A stretch of DNA of 16,796 bases, from assembly GCA_031261365.1 (NCBI GenBank), contig JAISJY010000022.1, positions 1 through 16,796 on the forward strand. The letters are read 5' to 3'. Positions within the stretch are counted from its first letter, which is position 1; every line of letters begins with the position of its first letter. Below are positions 1,416 through 11,067 of the stretch, one piece after another. Both the position numbers and the translations under genes were made by a program. Under the pieces are notes generated by a model. That model saw only the letters and a program-made list of their open reading frames with translations, had not been told where the DNA came from and did no database searches. The stretch is from Bacillales bacterium (GTDB lineage: Bacteria > Bacillota_I > Bacilli_A > RFN20 > JAISJY01).

Positions 1416-3626
1416 ATGAGCGAAGAAGAAAAGAAAACTATTAACCCCTATGATGTTGAGCAAATTGAAGTCTTAGAAGGATTAGAACATGTTAGATTAA
1501 GACCAGGAATGTATATTGGTTCAACAGGAGAACAAGGATTACACCATATTGTTTGGGAAATCATTGATAATGGAGTTGATGAAGCTTTGGCAGGTTATTG
1601 TGATAAAATAGATGTTACAATTAGCAAAGATTCAGAAATTATTGTTTTTGATAATGGAAGAGGAATACCAACAGGCATACATCCTAAAACAGGAGTTTCA
1701 ACCTTACAAACAGTTTTTGCTGAAACAAATGCGGGAGGTAAGTTTGGTGGCAGTGGTTATAAAGCTTCAGGAGGATTACATGGAGTTGGTGCTTCAGCAA
1801 CTAATGCTCTTTCTAAATACTTTGAAGCTTGGGTCCATAGAGATGGAGAAATAACATATATTCGTTTTGAAAATGGTAAAAAAGAACCTGTTATTAAACC
1901 TCATGTTATTGGAAAAACAACTCAAACAGGAACAGTTGTTAAGTTTTATCCTGATGAAACTATATTTGTTGGCTTTAAACCAGAAATATTTGCTCATCCT
2001 CAAACAGCAGTTATTGAAGTAAAAGAGGAAGAAGGTAATAATCTCACTCCTTCATTTACTTTTAAATATGAATTAATTAATCAAAGAATTAAACAATTAG
2101 CCTTTTTAAATAAAGGTGTTACATTTACTTTTAAAGATGAAAGATTAAATGAAAATGGTGAAAAAGTTAATCCTGATGTAGTTTATAAATACGATGGAGG
2201 ATTAAGACAATATGTTGAATATTTAAATGAAGAAAAAGGTCTTAAAGGTAAAGATAGTAAAGGAAAAGAAATATATACTTCAGTCGTTTATATTAATGAA
2301 AAAAGTGAACATACAGTTGTTAATAATGGTAAAGAAGAGAAATACGATATAGCTTTAGAATTGGCAATGCAATATAATGATGGCTATACTACAAGTTTAT
2401 ATTCTTTTTGTAATAATATAAATACTCCAGATGGTGGTACACATGTTGATGGATTTAAAGCTGCCTTAGCTAGAATTATGAATAGTTTAAGAGTAGAAAA
2501 CGAAGAAATAGGTAAGAAAATTGATAAGATAGTAAATCAATATGTTCATGATGAAGACAAAGAAAAAGAAAAGAAATTAAAAGAAGAAAGTAAAAAAATA
2601 AAACAAGAAGATGTTTTAGAAGGTTTAGCAGCGGTTATTTCTATTAGACATCCTAATCCTGAATATCAAGGACAAACTAAAGGAAGATTAGGTAATCCAG
2701 AAGTTAGAACAGCGATTAGTCAAATAGTTCAAGCCCAATTAGAAAGATATATTTTAGAAAATCCTGATGAAGTTGCTATTATTGTAGAGAAAATTATTAA
2801 TGCTTTTAAAGGAAGATTAGCAGCTAAAGCGGCTCGAGAAACAACTAGAGTTGGAGCTTTAGATACTTTCTCTTCATTACCTGGCAAACTTGCTGACTGT
2901 TCAAGTAAAGAAGCAGATAGATGTGAAATATATATCGTGGAAGGAGATTCAGCTGGTGGTTCAGCTATTGATGGTAGAAATAGAAACTTCCAAGCAGTCT
3001 TGCCTTTAAGAGGTAAAATATTAAATGTTGAAAAAGCAAGTAAAGAACAAATATTTAATAATGCTGAAATTGCTAGTATGATTAAAGCTTTTGGAGTTGG
3101 TTATTTAAAACAAAAAGATAAAGATGAAGATGGCAATGAAATAGAAGTAGAAACTCAAGAATTAGATTTAAAGAACTTAAGATATAATAAAATTATTATT
3201 ATGACTGATGCTGATGTTGATGGTTCACATATTAGAATATTAATGTTAACATTCTTCTTTAGATATTTAAAAGATTTAATCACAACAGGGCATATTTTTA
3301 TTGCTCAACCACCTTTATATCAAGTTAAGTACTCTGAAAAAGACATAACATATGTCTATTCAGACCAACAATTAGATGATTTAAGAGCTTTAAAAGGTAA
3401 AGAAAAAGATTTACAAAGATACAAAGGATTAGGAGAAATGGATGCTATTCAACTTTGGGATACTACTATGGATCCAAAACAAAGAGTAATGAAAAAAGTA
3501 GAATTAACAGATGCTATTGAAGCAGATAAATGGTTTTCTTTTTTGATGGGAAATGATAGTTCCCACCGCAAAGACTTTATTAGTGAAGAAGCCAAGTTTG
3601 TAGATAGCAAAAATATAGATTTCTAA
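1416..3626 (+). CDS. gyrB: DNA gyrase subunit B
   Basis: 736 aa. GHKL ATPase motifs (HHIVWEIIDNGVDEA, GLHGVGAS). Toprim motifs (EGDSAGGSA, PLRGKILNVEKA). C-terminal QRYKGLGEM. ATG immediately follows the recF stop. Contains lineage-specific insertions. Confidence 0.97.
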   Translation: MSEEEKKTINPYDVEQIEVLEGLEHVRLRPGMYIGSTGEQGLHHIVWEIIDNGVDEALAGYCDKIDVTISKDSEIIVFDNGRGIPTGIHPKTGVSTLQTVFAETNAGGKFGGSGYKASGGLHGVGASATNALSKYFEAWVHRDGEITYIRFENGKKEPVIKPHVIGKTTQTGTVVKFYPDETIFVGFKPEIFAHPQTAVIEVKEEEGNNLTPSFTFKYELINQRIKQLAFLNKGVTFTFKDERLNENGEKVNPDVVYKYDGGLRQYVEYLNEEKGLKGKDSKGKEIYTSVVYINEKSEHTVVNNGKEEKYDIALELAMQYNDGYTTSLYSFCNNINTPDGGTHVDGFKAALARIMNSLRVENEEIGKKIDKIVNQYVHDEDKEKEKKLKEESKKIKQEDVLEGLAAVISIRHPNPEYQGQTKGRLGNPEVRTAISQIVQAQLERYILENPDEVAIIVEKIINAFKGRLAAKAARETTRVGALDTFSSLPGKLADCSSKEADRCEIYIVEGDSAGGSAIDGRNRNFQAVLPLRGKILNVEKASKEQIFNNAEIASMIKAFGVGYLKQKDKDEDGNEIEVETQELDLKNLRYNKIIIMTDADVDGSHIRILMLTFFFRYLKDLITTGHIFIAQPPLYQVKYSEKDITYVYSDQQLDDLRALKGKEKDLQRYKGLGEMDAIQLWDTTMDPKQRVMKKVELTDAIEADKWFSFLMGNDSSHRKDFISEEAKFVDSKNIDF

Positions 3627-3635
3627 GGAGGAACC

Positions 3636-6128
3636 ATGAGTACATATAAAAAAGATGAAGGATTTGAAAGAGACTTTGTGCATAATGAAGAAATTGTAGA
3701 TGTTAATGGAGAATTAAAAAAAGACTTTTTAGAATATGCCATGTCAGTAATTGTAGCGAGAGCAATTCCTGATGTTAGAGATGGCTTAAAACCTGTTCAT
3801 AGAAGAATAATATATTCAATGAATGAAGAAGGATTTACAGCAGGTAGAAGTTATAATAAATCAGCCAAAGTAGTAGGAGCAGTTATGGGTAATTATCATC
3901 CCCACGGAGATAGTTCTATTTATGAAGCAATGGTTAGATTAGCTCAACCATTTAACACTAGATATCAATTAGTAGATGGGCATGGTAATTTTGGTAATAT
4001 TGATGGTTATGGAGCAGCTGCTCAAAGATATACAGAAGCTAGATTAGCAAGATTATCAAGTGAATTAATTAAAGATATTGATAAAAGCACTGTTGATTTT
4101 ATAGATACATATGACGGTAAAGGGAAAGAACCTGTTGTTTTACCAGCTTATTTTCCTAATCTATTAGTTAATGGAACTACAGGTATCGCGGTTGGTATGG
4201 CAACCAATATGCCTCCTCATAATTTAGGCGAAATAATTGATTGTATTTTTGCAATTATGGAAAATCCAGACATAGAAGTAATTGACTTAATGAATAGTTA
4301 TATTAAAGGTCCAGACTTTCCAACAGGGGCAATTATCATGGGTAAATCTGGTATTAGAAAAGCTTATGAAACAGGTAGAGGTAGTTTTGTTATTAGAAGT
4401 AAATTACACACTGAAGATATGGGGAATGGTAAAACTAGAATAATTGTCAGTGAGATACCTTATCAAACTAATAAGAAAACTTTAATAGAAAAGATAGCGA
4501 ATTTAGTAAAAACAAAAGTTGTTGAAGGTATTGTGGAATTAAGAGATGAATCTAATTTAGAAGGTATTAGAATAATAATTGAATTAAAGAAAGATACTTT
4601 AGTTGATGTTTTAATTAATACTCTTTATAGATTAACACCTTTGCAACAGTCTTATTCTGTAAATAATTTAGTTTTAGATAAAAATGAACCAAAAACTTTA
4701 GGAATAATAGATATAATTAAGAAATATTTAGAACACCAAAATGATGTTTTAGTTAGAAAAACTCAATTCCAATTAGATGAAGCAAATAAGAGAATGCACA
4801 TCTTGAGAGGTTTTATTAAAGTCTTAGGTGATATTGATGAAGCGATTAAAATAATTAGAACAAGTAAAACTGTTGAAGAAGAGTTTGAAAGATTTACTAA
4901 GCGTTTTGGTTTAGACGATGTTCAAATTAAAGCGGTGATTAATATGAGATTACAAGCTTTATCTAATATGGAAATAACTAAACTTGAAGAAGAATACAAA
5001 GCTTTACAATTAAGTATTGATGAATTGATGTTAATTTTAAACTCTCAAGATAAGAGATGGGCAATAATTAGAGCAAGTCTAGAAGAAATAAAAGGAAAAT
5101 ATGCCGATGAAAGAAGAACAGAAATCTCTTTAGACGAGTTTGATGTTGAAGACGAAGACTTAATACCTCAAGAAGATATATTAATCACTTTAACTAATAA
5201 AGGTTATATTAAAAGATTAAGTTTAGATACTTATAAAACCCAAAACAGAGGTGGTAAAGGTATTAAAGGTATGAATACTTATGAAGATGATGTAGTAGAA
5301 AAGTTATTAGTTGCCAACACTCATACAGATATTTTATTCTTTATGACTAATGGTAAAGTATATAAAGTAAGAGGCTTTAGAATACCTGAAGGTTCTAGAA
5401 CTAGTAAAGGAATACCAGCTGTTGTTAACTTATTAAAAGCTCCAAAAGAAGAGAAAATACAGTCAATAATTTGTATTAAAGATTATGATGATGAAAACTT
5501 CCATTTATTATTTTCAACTAAAAAAGGTATTTTAAAAAGAACCTCATTAGATGAATATAAAAACATTCATAAAAACGGTAAAATTGCTATTAATTTAAGA
5601 GATGATGATGAACTAGTAGGTGTAGCCCAAACTAGTGGAAATGCTGAAGTATATTTAGCTAATTCTAATGGTAAATTAGCTAGATTATCAGAGGAAGATA
5701 TTAGAGCCGTTGGTAGAAACTCTATTGGTGTTAAAGGTATGAATGTTGATGAAGGGCAAGTTATTTCAATGTCAACAAGCAATGAAGGAGATAAGATATT
5801 AGTTATTTCTAATAATGGTATTGGTAAAATGACACCAACAATTGATTATAGAGCCACAAATAGAGGAGCAAAAGGTGTTATTACCATTAAGATAAATGAA
5901 AAAACAGGACCATTAGCTTTAATGAAAGCTGTTAAAGGTGATGAAGATATTTTGATTATTACCAACAAAGGTATAATTATTAGAACTCCTTTAACTCAAA
6001 TAAGAGAGGCTAGTAGAAATACTTCTGGAGTTAAAATAATAAGATTAGAAGAAGACCAACATATTGCTTCAATTGCCGTTGTTGAACATATTGAAGAAGA
6101 GATTATTGAAGAGGAAGTAGAGGATTAA
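3636..6128 (+). CDS. gyrA: DNA gyrase subunit A
   Basis: 830 aa. Strong RBS AAGGAGG 6 nt upstream. Catalytic-Tyr motif AAQRYTEARL. Quinolone resistance-determining-like region HPHGDSSIYEAMVRLAQ. Acidic C-terminal tail EEEIIEEEVED typical of GyrA. Confidence 0.97.
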   Translation: MSTYKKDEGFERDFVHNEEIVDVNGELKKDFLEYAMSVIVARAIPDVRDGLKPVHRRIIYSMNEEGFTAGRSYNKSAKVVGAVMGNYHPHGDSSIYEAMVRLAQPFNTRYQLVDGHGNFGNIDGYGAAAQRYTEARLARLSSELIKDIDKSTVDFIDTYDGKGKEPVVLPAYFPNLLVNGTTGIAVGMATNMPPHNLGEIIDCIFAIMENPDIEVIDLMNSYIKGPDFPTGAIIMGKSGIRKAYETGRGSFVIRSKLHTEDMGNGKTRIIVSEIPYQTNKKTLIEKIANLVKTKVVEGIVELRDESNLEGIRIIIELKKDTLVDVLINTLYRLTPLQQSYSVNNLVLDKNEPKTLGIIDIIKKYLEHQNDVLVRKTQFQLDEANKRMHILRGFIKVLGDIDEAIKIIRTSKTVEEEFERFTKRFGLDDVQIKAVINMRLQALSNMEITKLEEEYKALQLSIDELMLILNSQDKRWAIIRASLEEIKGKYADERRTEISLDEFDVEDEDLIPQEDILITLTNKGYIKRLSLDTYKTQNRGGKGIKGMNTYEDDVVEKLLVANTHTDILFFMTNGKVYKVRGFRIPEGSRTSKGIPAVVNLLKAPKEEKIQSIICIKDYDDENFHLLFSTKKGILKRTSLDEYKNIHKNGKIAINLRDDDELVGVAQTSGNAEVYLANSNGKLARLSEEDIRAVGRNSIGVKGMNVDEGQVISMSTSNEGDKILVISNNGIGKMTPTIDYRATNRGAKGVITIKINEKTGPLALMKAVKGDEDILIITNKGIIIRTPLTQIREASRNTSGVKIIRLEEDQHIASIAVVEHIEEEIIEEEVED

Positions 6129-6663
6129 GTAAATAATAGAACTTTTCAGCAAAGGTTTTGTTTAATTGAGAACTTTGAAATGTTCCATCAGTAAAAAAGG
6201 TAAAACCTGCTTTTTCTATAACTCTTTTAGATTTATTGTTACCAATAAAATGACCACAATATAATATTTGAAGTTGGGTATTTTCAAAAAGATAATTAAT
6301 AACAGTTTTTATGGCTTCACTCATTAAGCCTTTTCCCCAATAATCTTTACTTAAAACATAACCTATTTCACTAGCTAAATAACTTTTAAACTCTGGTTTT
6401 ATTTCTTGAGTATCTTTGATGCCAATGGAACCAATAACTTTTTTATTTTCTTTATAAACAATTGCAAAAGTTGTATCTTGTTTAAGAAAGATATTTAAAA
6501 TCCTTTGACTTTCATTAATATCTTTATGATGTAACCAACCTGCTGCCTCCCCTACTCCTTCAACTTGACAGTACTCATAAAAATCATTAAGGTCATCTTC
6601 TTGATAAGCTCTTAATATTAGTCTTTCAGTTTCTATTATTATCTTATTAACTTTAAAGTCCAT
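6103..6663 (-). CDS. GNAT family N-acetyltransferase (RimJ/RimL-like)
   Basis: 186 aa. N-terminal ETERLILRAY..DDL and central GWLHHKD/acetyl-CoA fold pattern typical of RimL-type GNATs. Starts 1 nt after the upstream flavoprotein stop, so probably an operon. 3' end overlaps gyrA convergently by 26 nt. Confidence 0.8.
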   Translation of the reverse strand: MDFKVNKIIIETERLILRAYQEDDLNDFYEYCQVEGVGEAAGWLHHKDINESQRILNIFLKQDTTFAIVYKENKKVIGSIGIKDTQEIKPEFKSYLASEIGYVLSKDYWGKGLMSEAIKTVINYLFENTQLQILYCGHFIGNNKSKRVIEKAGFTFFTDGTFQSSQLNKTFAEKFYYLLNPLLPLQ

Positions 6664-6664
6664 A

Positions 6665-7279
6665 TTATTTAATAAAGTTAGTATGAACTAAAGGAAGTTC
6701 TTCTGGTAAAGGTAAATCAGCTTTCTTTTGACATTTAATTAAATAAGCCATATTGTTTGCTAAAACTTTTAAAGTTCTAATACCTTCTAAATCTTCTTGA
6801 ACCTCTTGAGGATTATTACCGTGTATTTGGTTCCAATAAGAAGAACTGACAAGAGGCATTTCGGAAATTGTAAAATATTTATTAAGTTGGTCAAAAGTAG
6901 CAGTTGCACCTCCTCGACGGCAACTCACTATACTTGCTCCGAATTTCATTTTTAGTTTTCTTCTATCAATACTATAAAATAATCTATCTAGAAAGGAGAT
7001 AATAGAACCTGAAGCACTAGAAAAATAGACAGGTGAACCAATAATTAAACCTTCAGCATTTTCTAAATCTTGAGCCACTACATTAACTAAATCATTAAAG
7101 ATACACCTTTTAATTTCTTTACATTTTCCACAACCAATACAACCTTGAATGGCTTGATTTCCTAAGTTATAAATTGTTGCTTCAATATCATTTTTCTTTA
7201 ATTGTTCTTTAATAATATTAAGTCCTGTATAAGTACAACCATTAACTCTCGGACTACCATTGATTAAAATTACTCTCAT
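6665..7279 (-). CDS. flavodoxin-like NAD(P)H-dependent FMN reductase / iron-sulfur flavoprotein
   Basis: 204 aa. N-terminal MRVILINGSPR (flavodoxin-like FMN-binding start). Compact Cys cluster CIGCGKCKEIKRC (CxxCxxCx5C), as in Isf-type iron-sulfur flavoproteins. RBS AAAGGAAG upstream. Confidence 0.7.
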   Translation of the reverse strand: MRVILINGSPRVNGCTYTGLNIIKEQLKKNDIEATIYNLGNQAIQGCIGCGKCKEIKRCIFNDLVNVVAQDLENAEGLIIGSPVYFSSASGSIISFLDRLFYSIDRRKLKMKFGASIVSCRRGGATATFDQLNKYFTISEMPLVSSSYWNQIHGNNPQEVQEDLEGIRTLKVLANNMAYLIKCQKKADLPLPEELPLVHTNFIK

Positions 7280-7302
7280 TTTTTACTTCCTTTAATAAAT
7301 AA

Positions 7303-7326
7303 ATTATAACAAAAAAAGGGAACTAA
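7303..7326. repeat. left copy of ~24-nt direct repeat (attataaCaaaaaaagggaactaa) carrying a T-tract plus -10 TATAAT on the minus strand
   Basis: Near-identical (one indel/mismatch) to 9605..9628. Both copies sit 3' of a minus-strand gene and 5' of the next minus-strand gene. On the minus strand they read ttagttccctttttt(g)ttataat. Confidence 0.5.
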
Positions 7327-7389
7327 TTCTTTTCTTTATTATTTAAAAAAGCTAATGTAATAAGAAAAATAGTTTAACCTATCAAAAAA

Positions 7390-8379
7390 CTATGAAGACA
7401 AAGATGGATTTTTACGAACGGCTTGAACAACATTAAATGACATAATATCATAAATATTTTTTGCAATTCTCTCAAGTACTGTTACGCAAACAGAGTTTCC
7501 TGCTTGTTTATATAATTGAGCAGTGGAAATATTAGGTAATATAAAATCTTTTGGAAAACCTTGCAAATTAAAACATTCCTTTGGTGTGAGTTTTCTAACT
7601 CCGAATTGCGTTTTTATTAAAGGTACATTGTGTCCGCCTGTTCCCATATTCGCTGTAAGTGTCGGTGACATATTACTTTTATTTTGTCTAACATATTGCC
7701 TACGCCATTGATATAAAGTATTTGTATCGTTAAATTTATTCATTTCTTTAATAATACGCGGAAATTTACTTTCAGGATAGTAAAATTTTTCGTCAACTTT
7801 ATTTTCAAAATCAATAACATCACTTAACTTCTTTGTTAATCGTATAGGTTGTGGAAAATAAAATCTATTTGCTTTTTCTTCATCAAGGAAACCGACAATA
7901 TATATTCTTTCGCGGTTTTGTGGGATATTGCCGTATTCACAAGCATTTAAAACCATATAGCGAGTATAATATCCAAGTTCCTTTAAGGTATTTAATATAA
8001 CTTCAAATGTTTTACCATTATCGTGAGATACAAGATTTTTTACATTTTCAAGAAGTATAACTTGTGGTTGTTTTGCCTTTAATATTCTTGCCACTTCAAA
8101 GAACAAAGTTCCACGAATATCGTCAAAACCCTTTTGATAACCAGCAATAGAAAATGCTTGACAAGGGAAACCACCAATAAGACAATCAAAATCTGGTAAT
8201 TCCGTTTCTGTAATTTTTTTTATATCTCCGCATAATACTTTAGTAGTAGGAAAATTCATTTGATAAGTTTGACAAGCGAAACTATCAATATCATTAGCCA
8301 AGATTATTTTGAACCCTACATTTTCAAAAGCAAGATCAATGCCACCTACTCCACTAAATAAACTTAAAATTTCATTCAT
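7390..8379 (-). CDS. DNA (cytosine-5)-methyltransferase
   Basis: Motif I LFSGVGG. Motif IV GGFPCQAFS (catalytic PCQ). Motif VI LLENVKNL. Motif IX/X region RKLTPKECFNLQGFP and GNSV. Start moved to the ATG at 8379, preceded by AAAGGAG. The ORF-track start at 8406 is a TTG with no SD. 329 aa, small monospecific Dcm/M.HaeIII-like architecture. Confidence 0.93.
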   Translation of the reverse strand: MNEILSLFSGVGGIDLAFENVGFKIILANDIDSFACQTYQMNFPTTKVLCGDIKKITETELPDFDCLIGGFPCQAFSIAGYQKGFDDIRGTLFFEVARILKAKQPQVILLENVKNLVSHDNGKTFEVILNTLKELGYYTRYMVLNACEYGNIPQNRERIYIVGFLDEEKANRFYFPQPIRLTKKLSDVIDFENKVDEKFYYPESKFPRIIKEMNKFNDTNTLYQWRRQYVRQNKSNMSPTLTANMGTGGHNVPLIKTQFGVRKLTPKECFNLQGFPKDFILPNISTAQLYKQAGNSVCVTVLERIAKNIYDIMSFNVVQAVRKNPSLSS

Positions 8380-8390
8380 ACTTTCTCCTT

Positions 8391-8406
8391 TTGCGGCATG
8401 CTGCAA
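8391..8406. promoter_or_regulatory. GC-rich near-palindrome TTGCGGCATGCTGCAA just upstream of the MTase RBS (possible operator)
   Basis: 16-bp inverted repeat with one imperfect position. About 60% GC in a ~28% GC genome. Lies ~12 nt upstream of the MTase start codon (8379), adjoining its SD. Confidence 0.3.
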
Positions 8407-8453
8407 TTTATATATTATTATTATAATCTATATATTCTTTTTTGTAAACATTT

Positions 8454-9116
8454 TTATTTGATTTTTTTTATAAAATTTTCCATCTCATTAAGCATTTCTT
8501 GCTCTTTATTTGGTATCTTTTCAATAATTGATTTGTGCATAAAATACTCTTGCCCGTTATTACTCTCTCTATCTAAATATTGAAAATACATAATATATGT
8601 TTTATTGCTTTCCAATTTAAAATTATTTATTCTAGCTTCACCATTTGTTGTGATGGTTATTGAACTTGCACTATTTTTGATAAATTGTAATTTTTCAATG
8701 TTCTCAATATCTAAATCAAGTATTATTTTATGATTATTGTTTTTGTCTAAAATATTTTCAACAGCAAACAAGCCGTTTTCTTTTATAGTTGTATATTTAT
8801 TAAATGGGACAGTTAATGGTATAACTTGTGAGTTTCTTGTTTCTCTAATATCTTTTAAATACATTGGACCGACAGTTGCTGGGCATAAGTTTGAGTAAGC
8901 CATAAAATCATTTGCACTTACAATAGTTATTAAACTTAAATATCCTAAATCATCTGTTGGCTGTTTGATTTCCCTTATAAGTGTAACTAAATTTTGTGTA
9001 TTTGAAACGATAAATGAATTATCATCCATGCTCATTTTTTTATAAATGTCGTTACTCAAAAGTGCCTTTTCAAAAAACGGTAATAGATAATCAGTATTTA
9101 AGTTTGTTTCTACCAT
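8454..9116 (-). CDS. hypothetical protein (candidate C-terminal part of a frameshifted restriction endonuclease/defence gene)
   Basis: 220-aa ORF directly upstream of and co-oriented with the C5-MTase. No recognisable motif. No convincing SD before the ATG at 9116. The reading frame stays open a further 37 codons upstream (to 9227) and overlaps the open frame of the preceding ORF. Confidence 0.5.
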   Translation of the reverse strand: MVETNLNTDYLLPFFEKALLSNDIYKKMSMDDNSFIVSNTQNLVTLIREIKQPTDDLGYLSLITIVSANDFMAYSNLCPATVGPMYLKDIRETRNSQVIPLTVPFNKYTTIKENGLFAVENILDKNNNHKIILDLDIENIEKLQFIKNSASSITITTNGEARINNFKLESNKTYIMYFQYLDRESNNGQEYFMHKSIIEKIPNKEQEMLNEMENFIKKIK

Positions 9117-9184
9117 AACTAAAAATTTATTCTCATATCCTTGATTTCTTAAACTAACTAAATATTGTTGTTCCTTAAATGATT

Positions 9185-9571
9185 TTACCTCAATTTGTGG
9201 TGCTTCAGCAACTGCTTGCCATTTTCGTTATTGTCTTTATCTTTATTAAAACGAACAAATGGTATTGCTTCGTCCAACATTTTAATACCTAAAACATCTG
9301 GTGCAATGCCTGTTTTTTTGGGGTCATATTGGTAATAGTCACTTATAACCTTTAATTCAGCTCCAACATTCTTAGCAATTTTTGGAAGTAAAAGTTTATT
9401 AAAAATAATGCTCTCGGGAATAATGTTTATCCACCTGTCAAATATACCACCAATATAATCGCTTTTGCCACTTAATCCGCCATACATTTTGCCACGCTGT
9501 GACATTGAACAAACAAAATAAATATAAGGTTCTACATCCTGTTTTTTAATTTCAATTTTATCTTTTGCCAT
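9185..9571 (-). CDS. hypothetical protein (candidate N-terminal part of the same disrupted gene)
   Basis: 128 aa from the ATG at 9571. AAAGGAG lies 11 nt upstream, and the track's GTG start at 9583 overlaps that SD. No recognisable family. First gene of a co-oriented 3-gene unit ending in the MTase. Confidence 0.5.
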   Translation of the reverse strand: MAKDKIEIKKQDVEPYIYFVCSMSQRGKMYGGLSGKSDYIGGIFDRWINIIPESIIFNKLLLPKIAKNVGAELKVISDYYQYDPKKTGIAPDVLGIKMLDEAIPFVRFNKDKDNNENGKQLLKHHKLR

Positions 9572-9604
9572 AATAAAAATCACTCCTTTATATAAAATAT
9601 ACTA

Positions 9605-9628
9605 CCATTATAAAAAAAAGGGAACTAA
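9605..9628. repeat. right copy of ~24-nt direct repeat (attataaaaaaaaagggaactaa)
   Basis: Includes the 3' half of the flotillin terminator hairpin, the U-tract, and the TATAAT used as -10 for the 128-aa ORF. Confidence 0.5.
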
Positions 9629-9637
9629 ATAATTCCC
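9612..9637 (-). terminator. intrinsic terminator downstream of the flotillin gene
   Basis: Minus strand reads GGGAAUUAUUUAGUUCCC followed by UUUUUUUU. This is 15 nt after the flotillin stop. Confidence 0.6.
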
Positions 9638-9651
9638 TTCTTAAACATTAA

Positions 9652-11067
9652 CTATTTTTTTGTTTTCTTTTCTTCTTTAACTTCCACTTCAACAACAGGT
9701 TCAATAGGTTTTTCTTCTTTACCTACTAAGAAAGGGGGAAGATTTAAACCAGCAGATTTATAAAGGTCTTGCAAAGGTGGTAATGATTTTAATAAACTTT
9801 GAGCAAAATTAGCAGTAGATGAACTACCATCTTTATTACCAGAATCCCAAACAGTAACTTTATCAATTTTTAAGTTCTTAATTGCTTCAACTTGGATTTC
9901 AACAAGTTTCTCTAGCTTATCAGTGATTAATAATTGAACTGCACTTTGAGGGTCTCCTGCACTTTTAATTAATCTAGCAAAACCTTCAGCTTGTTTAGAT
10001 AGTATTTCAAAACTACCTTTTGCTTCAGCTTCTAATTTAGCATAAATAGCATCAGCATGACCTTTTGCTTCTCTTCTAGCCGTTTCAGCAACAGCATCTG
10101 CTTCAATAATTCTTTTTTGTTTTTCAATTTCTGCAGAAACAATATCATTAGCTTCAAGAGTTGCTTTTTCTCTATCAAATCTTGCTCTTTCAGCTATCTC
10201 TTCAGCTCTGTATGAGTCTTCTAAAACTTTAGCAGTTGCAATTTTTTCAGCAGTTTCTGCTTTTCTTTTAGCTTCAGCTTGTTCTTCTCTTCTAGCGGCA
10301 TCTGACTGAGCAACTTTTCCTAAAGAAACATTTTCTCCACTAATAGCAACTTGGTTAGCTTCTGCCACTTTAATTCTTTGGTCCATATAAGCATTAGCTT
10401 CACCAATAGCACCATCTCTATTTTTTTCAGCAACTGATTTTTTAGCTTCGTTTATAGCTTTAGCTGCAGCTTCTTTTCCCAAAGCATCAATATAACCAGA
10501 TTCATCTTTAATATCTACAACATTCACATTTATTAATCTTAAACCGATTTTCTTTAATTCTAATTCCACATTTCTAGCAACAGCTTCTAAGAATTTATCT
10601 CTGTCAGTGTTAATTTCTTCAATTTCCATAGTTGCAATAACTAATCTTAATTGACCAAAAATAATATCTTTAGCTAGAGTTTCAATTTCATTCATTCTTA
10701 AACCTAGTAATCTTTCAGCCGCGTTTTGCATAACTCCATTTTCAGTTGAAATACCAACAGTAAAAACTGAAGGAACATCAATACGGATGTTTTGTTTAGA
10801 TAAAGCACTCTTTAAGTCAACAGATATTGACATTGGAGTTAAATCCATAAACTGATAAGCTTGAATAAAAGGTATAATGAACTTAACACCTCCATGAACA
10901 CAGTCTGCACTTCTTTTTGAACCATCTTGGTTAGCGGTAACTCTACCATAAACTACTAATATTTTATCTGAAGGACATTTTTTAGTACGAGATACAATAA
11001 ATCCTAAAACAGATAAAACTAAAACAACAACGATTACAACAATTCCAATAATTGGCCAAGGTCCCAT
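9652..11067 (-). CDS. floT: flotillin-like SPFH/band-7 domain protein (FloT/YuaG-like)
   Basis: 471 aa. N-terminal TM helix. SPFH domain. Long Ala/Glu/Lys-rich coiled coil with EA-repeat character (AEAKRKAETAEKIA...). Sits immediately downstream of an NfeD-like gene, as in B. subtilis yuaF-floT. Confidence 0.88.
   Translation of the reverse strand: MGPWPIIGIVVIVVVLVLSVLGFIVSRTKKCPSDKILVVYGRVTANQDGSKRSADCVHGGVKFIIPFIQAYQFMDLTPMSISVDLKSALSKQNIRIDVPSVFTVGISTENGVMQNAAERLLGLRMNEIETLAKDIIFGQLRLVIATMEIEEINTDRDKFLEAVARNVELELKKIGLRLINVNVVDIKDESGYIDALGKEAAAKAINEAKKSVAEKNRDGAIGEANAYMDQRIKVAEANQVAISGENVSLGKVAQSDAARREEQAEAKRKAETAEKIATAKVLEDSYRAEEIAERARFDREKATLEANDIVSAEIEKQKRIIEADAVAETARREAKGHADAIYAKLEAEAKGSFEILSKQAEGFARLIKSAGDPQSAVQLLITDKLEKLVEIQVEAIKNLKIDKVTVWDSGNKDGSSSTANFAQSLLKSLPPLQDLYKSAGLNLPPFLVGKEEKPIEPVVEVEVKEEKKTKK

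Follow-up and report, generated by a model that had tools for sequence, protein, structure and literature searches.

The closest described counterparts of the locus analysed in this study are the Bsp6I system, which combines the restriction endonuclease R.Bsp6I (RE_Bsp6I, PF09504) with the methyltransferase (MTase) M.Bsp6I, whose target is GCNGC (PMC2790894), and canonical Type IIP systems of the PD-(D/E)xK type, represented on the MTase side by HhaI and HaeIII. In addition, restriction-modification (R-M) units that were inserted with long target duplications and without mobility genes have been documented (Furuta et al. 2010, PMC2853133), according to criteria under which the insert comprises R and M, measures less than 20 kb and is flanked by a direct repeat longer than 30 bp, of which a genome with the empty site has one copy only. 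Solitary MTases from decayed R-M systems provide a further point of comparison. Here, we analysed a window of 16,796 bp, i.e., one complete contig of a metagenome-assembled genome labelled 'Bacillales bacterium' at NCBI (locus tags LBM99_). A cassette on its minus strand is very probably a decayed two-gene Type IIP R-M unit, in which the restriction endonuclease gene (R) is broken by a frameshift and the gene for a C5 cytosine DNA MTase (M) is intact, with a product that is probably specific for GCNGC.

As in the Bsp6I system, R is followed by a co-oriented M after a gap of about 60-75 nucleotides (nt). The nearest relatives of the window MTase, with about 316 amino acids (aa) and 73-78% identity including the recognition domain, were found directly downstream of a gene for an RE_Bsp6I protein of 180-189 aa in every context examined (PF09504 match of the partner genes at 1.9e-17, or taken from precomputed Pfam matches). 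Their genes carry the same double GCNGC element upstream, and the same target is predicted for them as for the window MTase. In contrast to these small nucleases, the nuclease here belongs to a family of about 360 aa. Neither the repaired R protein nor its relatives matched PF09504, and the profile-profile comparison with hhalign gave a probability of 0.1%, by which the family was ruled out as a relative of Bsp6I-like enzymes. If the GCNGC specificity holds, the family and the Bsp6I-type enzymes would be non-homologous isoschizomers.

With canonical Type IIP systems, the locus shares the two-gene unit and the E...PD...ExK pattern, and its MTase has the same ten motifs and single recognition domain as HhaI- and HaeIII-type enzymes; a controller protein is likewise present in some loci of the family. 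It differs from them in that the family nuclease has no counterpart in the PDB, neither by sequence nor as a significant structural neighbour, and in that the copy here is a pseudogene. Like the insertions of PMC2853133, the cassette is a small insert (about 2.3 kb) that holds R and M only, with no integrase or transposase, and its flanking repeat consists of a host intergenic terminator and -10 box. This repeat, however, is shorter and less well preserved (16 nt exact, 25/31) than the criterion of more than 30 bp would require. With solitary MTases from decayed systems it shares an intact MTase, apparently self-promoted, beside an inactivated nuclease gene, although the decay is minimal in this case and consists of a single frameshift.

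The split nuclease gene

In the initial annotation, the cassette was described as three co-oriented minus-strand genes. Three minus-strand open reading frames (ORFs) are indeed present, but they represent two genes, because the first two, of 128 and 220 aa, are halves of one frameshifted gene (Table 1). A search with the fused product, put at about 350 aa when it was first suggested, proved to be the key to this. Joining the frames at the cgAAAAtgg stretch gave a repaired model of 372 aa that matched 432 proteins. Hundreds of single-ORF proteins of about 360 aa could be aligned with it from end to end at 55-62% identity, and the top c. 120 matches, again of about 360 aa, had 55-60% identity over 98% of the query. 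The alignment of the homologues crosses the frame junction without interruption. In related loci in which the gene lies away from contig ends, it forms one ORF of 353-397 aa, with locus L074 as the sole exception.

Table 1. Positions of the cassette, its flanking repeat and the neighbouring genes in the 16,796-bp window.
Feature	Position	Strand	Remarks
recF-gyrB-gyrA		+	neighbouring genes
GNAT gene	6103-6663	-	after the flavoprotein gene
FMN_red flavoprotein gene	6665-7279	-	downstream border of the cassette
Downstream repeat copy	7311-7341	-	degenerate terminator half + T7, then TATAAT 7308-7303
M, C5 cytosine DNA methyltransferase gene	7390-8379	-	329 aa, intact
Double GCNGC, GCGGC-AT-GCTGC	8393-8404		imperfect palindrome between -10 box and ribosome-binding site of M
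Predicted M promoter, sigma-70-type, TTTACA-17-TATAAT	8420-8448	-	11/12; in the gap between R and M
R, restriction endonuclease pseudogene	8454-9571	-	one gene of c. 372 codons, net -1 frameshift
3' fragment of R ('220-aa ORF')	8454-9116	-	LBM99_00750 at NCBI, hypothetical protein
5' fragment of R ('128-aa ORF')	9185-9571	-	ATG at 9571; carries helix Glu (IIPES) and P-D
E-x-K	9183-9191	-	Glu 9191-9189, Lys 9185-9183; frame of the 3' fragment, upstream of its first start ATG 9116
Frameshift site cgAAAA	9222-9227	-	between last frame-3 stop TAA 9230-9228 and invariant Trp codon 9221-9219
Upstream repeat copy, flotillin intrinsic terminator	9613-9643	-	hairpin 9642-9615, T8 9619-9612, TATAAT 9612-9607
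Flotillin/Band_7 gene	9652-11067	-	upstream border of the cassette
NfeD-like gene		-	after flotillin/Band_7; then M18 aminopeptidase, QueT, ABC transporter

The 128-aa ORF closes at an out-of-frame TAA (9187-9185) and ends with ...GIAPDVLGIKMLDEAIPFVRFNKDKDNNENGKQLLKHHKLR*. The 220-aa ORF encodes the end of the nuclease domain and the beta-rich C-terminal domain, and three-frame translation revealed that its frame continues without a stop for 111 nt beyond the ATG in the upstream direction, as far as 9227; this open stretch translates as RKWQAVAEAPQIEVKSFKEQQYLVSLRNQGYENKFLV, the frame being read as ...KWQAVAEAPQIEVKSFK. The shift could be pinned to the cgAAAA site because only the segment between the last frame-3 stop and the invariant Trp codon can accommodate it. 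Compared to the homologues, the window carries a net +17 nt at this site, including the extra residues 'KDKDNN', and the lesion may be an insertion or deletion that arose within a variable loop, and not just a slip in a homopolymer. Phase variation at the shift site was ruled out, since the A-run is only 4 nt long, as was programmed -1 frameshifting, for which a slippery heptamer is missing at the site.

The shift falls between the two parts of the predicted active site. While the P-D (Pro 9301-9299, Asp 9298-9296) is located inside the 128-aa ORF, the ExK is encoded in the other frame, where no in-frame start codon precedes it, and is present in neither annotated product. Therefore, none of the products that the sequenced locus could encode has a complete active site; an intact nuclease frame, as expected for a Type II R-M system, was not found in the window, and R as sequenced would be unable to restrict. 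The absence of a clear PD-(D/E)xK motif noted in the initial annotation has to be corrected in this respect, as PD...ExK is present in the window and invariant in the family, but split by the frameshift.

It is highly improbable that the two ORFs encode separate proteins, be it a new MTase-linked effector pair or a working two-chain or read-through nuclease. Both were called as genes by two pipelines, and neither has a library annotation; however, apart from L074, related loci away from contig ends harbor one ORF, an in-frame start codon is missing for the ExK segment, and the split lies inside the catalytic core with no slippery heptamer at hand. Likewise, a different kind of MTase-linked defence effector, initially considered as one option, was not supported, the two ORFs being a frameshifted restriction enzyme gene. 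In the annotation, a single pseudogene should take the place of the two entries for a 'hypothetical protein'.

A second explanation concerns the frameshift itself, which could stem from an error in sequencing or assembly, or represent a minority allele, so that R would be intact and the R-M system fully active. R displays no further stop or damage besides the shift and has retained all residues found to be invariant among the 12 sequences of alignment A1. A one-base error is possible in a metagenome-assembled genome; moreover, the defect amounts to a single net base in an A-rich stretch, and the intact MTase would protect the host. On the other hand, the Logan assembly of SRR14710919 reproduced the window in two contigs, with the same frameshift, no gaps in the alignment and the same gene calls of 128 and 220 aa. 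With two independent assemblies of the reads in agreement, the frameshift is therefore not the artefact of one assembler. Furthermore, the A-run is short, the break coincides with the 17-nt net length difference from all homologues and not with a clean homopolymer slip, and GCNGC is not avoided in the window (observed/expected 0.81), in which GATC, GCGC, GGCC and CCGG are depleted 8-fold or more. Taking both sides together, we regard an error as unlikely and keep to a frameshifted R gene. Since this single frameshift is not accompanied by further lesions, the inactivation looks recent.

The Logan assembly differed from the window by a single nucleotide polymorphism at 9575 (T vs A), 4 nt upstream of the start codon of R, and its contigs break inside the MTase gene, leaving a 13-nt gap at 7723-7735; both observations hint that the cassette was poorly covered or that the strains are heterogeneous. 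As for the exception among the related loci, the family member at L074:4001-5068 has no single ORF though it is located well inside its contig. It adjoins an intact MTase with the double GCNGC element and may be another decayed copy.

A nuclease family linked to C5 methyltransferases

Comparison of 58 full-length members of the family, with identities down to 23%, revealed only D75, Y79, D89, G92, W109, E119, K121 and E333 as invariant (numbering of homologue P0001), and E54 as nearly invariant. D89 is the D of 'APDVLG', and E119 and K121 are those of 'IEVK'. The family displays the residue pattern (E)...(P)D...(D/E)xK and is predicted to consist of PD-(D/E)xK-type nucleases, which may share the alpha-beta-beta-beta-alpha-beta core fold of this superfamily, with the D where a strand starts and the ExK within the following strand. 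In an AlphaFold2 model of P0001 (mean predicted local distance difference test score, pLDDT, of 78; predicted template modelling score, pTM, of 0.77), E54 is located on a long helical hairpin, a strand begins just after D89, and E119-x-K121 lies inside the next core strand, while residues 200-360 form a beta-rich C-terminal domain with pLDDT >90. A model of the N-terminal 200 residues alone reached a pLDDT of 35 and was set aside.

Searches for known relatives were in line with the initial statement that the partner of the MTase does not belong to a familiar restriction enzyme family. The repaired R protein resulted in no match in Pfam, NCBIfam or PADLOC, and its distant relatives had no Pfam match either. 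No match was obtained in the PDB with a 40-sequence profile at E <= 10, Foldseek against the PDB found no significant structural neighbour, and tblastn of R against plasmids and phages gave no match. When 1.84 billion cluster representatives were searched exhaustively with HMMER, only 178 clusters were assigned to the family, and the cluster names of its members all read 'hypothetical' or 'uncharacterized'.

The gene context was studied in 80 loci of a metagenome scan and, together with four loci from exact-protein look-ups, in a set of 84 loci searched with the window MTase. A C5 MTase was detected in 70 of the 84, most exceptions being contigs that end beside the gene. When the count was limited to metagenome loci flanked by 2 kb or more on each side (n=30), 28 had a C5 MTase nearby, 18 of these within 30 nt. 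The arrangement was convergent in 17 of the 28, co-oriented with M upstream in eight, co-oriented with M downstream in two, and divergent in one. Linkage that is kept while the gene order shuffles is a signature of R-M pairs. As the linkage to C5 MTases, in the form of separate adjacent genes (with a gap of 74 nt in the window), is kept across genomes and across four gene orders, we interpret the family as restriction enzymes. Together with the PD...ExK motif, this supports the divergent Type II restriction enzyme that had been put forward for the partner of the MTase. In loci L003 and L004, a gene for a 73-aa HTH_3 controller-like protein is located 2 nt upstream of R.

Among the well-flanked loci, L051 and L052 lack an MTase; they and the shorter L053 are near-identical copies of one solitary homologue. 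In L051:3953-5110, this family member of 46% identity has no C5 MTase within 4 kb and is surrounded by genes for a fatty-acid desaturase, a radical-SAM wyosine-formation protein and a glycosyltransferase. Either this nuclease homologue is solitary, or its MTase lies at a distance.

Several relatives differ in their own architecture or in that of their partners. The family profile matched several stretches in long relatives of 645-722 aa (P0314, P0330, P0336, P0339, P0350, P0358, P0359, P0371 and P0374). P0336, the only one compared in detail, consists of one N-terminal PD...ExK domain followed by repeated beta-rich C-terminal modules, which suggests that the beta-rich domain could be a modular unit, possibly one for DNA recognition. 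In loci of the candidate-phyla-radiation (CPR) type (L001:7084-8634, L003:7084-8664, L004:1889-3469 and about 30 more among L005-L048), the partner C5 MTases are 493-574 aa long, and their MTase domain is fused at its N-terminal side to a complete LexA (LexA_DNA_bind plus Peptidase_S24); the LexA domains were verified in L001-L004, and the remaining loci among L005-L048 were judged by ORF length alone. Several of the LexA-MTase genes are preceded by a recurrent motif resembling TGTGGATAAC. If true, such partners would tie R-M control in CPR bacteria to LexA-type self-cleavage, and they may be a more interesting lead than the window itself. Finally, tandem double R-M clusters were found in L080:4001-7682, L084:2501-6181, L167:1298-4978 and L169:1271-4951, in the order of a 376-aa family member, an MTase with a different recognition domain ('M1'), an RE_Bsp6I-family gene and a second MTase ('M2'). 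In L080 the double cluster is followed by an ASCH-domain gene, in L167 by a serine recombinase gene.

The methyltransferase and its predicted target

The deduced product of M revealed the sequences FSGVGG, GFPCQ, ENV, QNRER, RKLTPKE and GNSV, with motifs I, IV (PC), VI (ENV), VIII, IX and X of C5 MTases, and matched PF00145 (7e-97, 325 bits, cut-off 22), TIGR00675 (dcm; 4.9e-109, 365 bits, cut-off 100.65) and the PADLOC profile MTase_II (3e-125). It had been described as small, monospecific and M.HaeIII-like. The first two attributes stand, but comparison of its core with solved structures identified M.HhaI (2e-65) and not M.HaeIII (1e-47) as the closest one. The similarity to M.HhaI does not extend to the target recognition domain, which could not be aligned.

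The sigma-70-type site upstream of M was the best promoter-like site in 7150-9750. With this predicted promoter of its own, M would be independent of read-through from the broken R gene and is probably transcribed separately. The two GCNGC sites of the double element are the only ones in the cassette. This element (GCNGC-AY-GCNGC, in either orientation) is kept upstream of Bsp6I-partnered MTases and of the MTase in L074, at about -20 to -8 from the MTase ATG in L080, L084, L169, L171 and L172, and at -51 to -40 in L074. A double GCNGC in an AT-rich spacer is unlikely to have arisen by chance, and its position fits a candidate operator that might be methylation-sensitive or bound by the MTase.

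With regard to the target, the recognition domain of the window MTase is similar to those of MTases of Bsp6I-family enzymes (71-77% identity to four such MTases). In addition, a recognition-loop signature, YQWRR-xYVRxNKS...PTLTANMGTGGHNVP, is common to the window MTase and the family-partnered MTases of the CPR-type, X-type and Y-type loci, whose recognition domains are 40-49% identical to that of the window. The M1 MTases of the four-gene clusters lack this signature and have YKIKD-NG...GTYPNR instead. Palindrome avoidance was calculated against a maximal-order Markov expectation. GCNGC revealed an observed/expected ratio of 0.47 (z -14.6) in 254 kb around relatives of 55-60% identity and of 0.41 (z -9.9) in the Y-type loci, compared to 0.89 in 973 kb of unrelated control loci. 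In the 254-kb set, the z value of GCNGC was the largest among those printed or recomputed from listed counts, and GCWGC (0.49) and GCSGC (0.46) were depleted to a similar degree. The depletion around intact family members is supportive, not decisive. We rather favour GCNGC as the target of the window MTase.

Several observations weigh against this assignment or against the pairing of the two genes. The control loci for GCNGC depletion were not phylogenetically matched to the test sets, CCWGG is similarly depleted in the test sets, and the closest relatives of the window MTase pair with Bsp6I-type enzymes and not with the 360-aa family, so that R and M could be a secondary pairing here. In a stricter form, R and M would be non-cognate, M being an MTase of the Bsp6I type whose own small nuclease has been lost, and R the remnant of a system with another specificity. 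This would agree with the RE_Bsp6I gene that always precedes the closest MTase relatives, with the lower identity (only 55-58%) of the MTases beside the closest R relatives to the window MTase, and with the four-gene clusters, in which the 376-aa member pairs with M1, whose recognition domain is only 28-34% identical to that of the window. Nevertheless, the family-partnered MTases of the CPR-type, X-type and Y-type loci carry the recognition-loop signature of the window, the identities of R and M to these loci are matched (57-60% vs 55-58%), and GCNGC is depleted around them. The 74-nt spacing of R and M together with the single pair of flanking repeats also suggests one inserted unit. A non-cognate origin thus appears improbable to us, and R and M are treated as parts of one decayed R-M unit.

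Extending this to the whole family is more tentative. The proteins of about 360 aa may represent uncharacterised Type IIP enzymes and a non-homologous isoschizomer of Bsp6I and Fnu4HI (GCNGC), with a core without close structural neighbour, a C-terminal recognition module that is repeated in the relatives of 645-722 aa, and LexA-MTase fusions as partners in CPR bacteria; we put this forward as a possibility worth considering. About 180 sequence clusters, mostly from uncultivated CPR bacteria, all annotated as hypothetical and not covered by Pfam, NCBIfam, PADLOC or the PDB, would gain a proposed function as Type II restriction enzymes with the target GCNGC, and the nuclease family could enter annotation libraries.

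Flanking repeat and genomic setting

The position of the cassette between the flotillin operon and the flavoprotein/GNAT operon, as given in the initial annotation, was borne out by domain assignment of the flanking genes. The direct repeat reported there with about 24 nt is real. The 16-mer AAAAAAAGGGAACTAA is present exactly twice in the window (7311-7326 and 9613-9628), while shuffled windows contained a mean of 0.21 matches even at <=2 mismatches, and the gapless repeat comprises 31 nt with 81% identity (25/31). A T-run and a TATAAT, both noted initially as well, follow each copy. In the upstream copy, a 12-pair hairpin was predicted (-12.4 kcal/mol, z -2.3). In the downstream copy, mutations have altered the 5' arm of the stem, and no significant structure was predicted; the TATAAT behind it is likely the -10 box of the flavoprotein/GNAT operon.

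The closest relatives of R were found in CPR bacteria and those of M in genomes of Clostridia and Erysipelotrichales. In 80 flotillin loci of species-representative genomes, only the NfeD-flotillin pair is kept; it was never followed by the flavoprotein, GNAT or gyrA gene that lie downstream in the window, and even in the closest of these genomes flotillin identity did not exceed 67-70%. When the proteins of the flanking genes were looked up by exact match, only the second assembly of the same sample was retrieved. The cassette is not marked by its GC content, as the G+C content is about 28% across the whole window and does not differ between the cassette and the rest.

With respect to palindromes, the window harbors 17 GCNGC sites (34 observed vs 42 expected on both strands). 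Counted in the same way, GATC was found 6 times vs 72 expected (0.08), GCGC 0 vs 12 (0), GGCC 2 vs 15 (0.13) and CCGG 2 vs 16 (0.13). The host seems to have been shaped by other restriction systems, which are not located on this contig. Since GCNGC is not avoided while these four palindromes are, the counts suggest that the GCNGC system is recent in the host or was never active for long.

Based on the repeat at the terminator/-10 junction, the relatives in foreign lineages, the missing shared context in 80 genomes and the lack of GCNGC avoidance, we favour a foreign origin of the cassette, in agreement with its initial description as an MTase-linked element foreign to the neighbouring operons. 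Insertion between the flotillin terminator and the flavoprotein promoter, with a duplication of the target, is a reasonably probable scenario. The duplication of the terminator/promoter junction proposed at first is plausible in view of the repeat and the foreign relatives, though the collections contained no relative close enough to reveal an empty site.

In the course of events that we envisage, the flotillin terminator and the flavoprotein promoter would have been separated by the entry of a unit of R followed by M, M would methylate its sites, probably GCNGC, from its own promoter, and an intact R of the family would cut unmethylated sites through an E/D/ExK Mg2+ metal centre. R would then have been inactivated when a frameshift in the loop that links the PD motif to the ExK motif separated its catalytic residues, leaving a solitary MTase beside a dead nuclease remnant. 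For this genome, the locus would stand for an MTase plus a dead nuclease and not for an active or exotic defence system. Elements of this kind are known, and such decay is common among them; what would be new is a function and a candidate specificity for an unannotated nuclease family.

Among the neighbouring genes, gyrB (1416-3626) encodes a GyrB of 736 aa, which is longer than expected for a Firmicute GyrB and may carry an insertion. The 3' ends of gyrA on the plus strand and the GNAT gene on the minus strand overlap by 26 nt (6103-6128).

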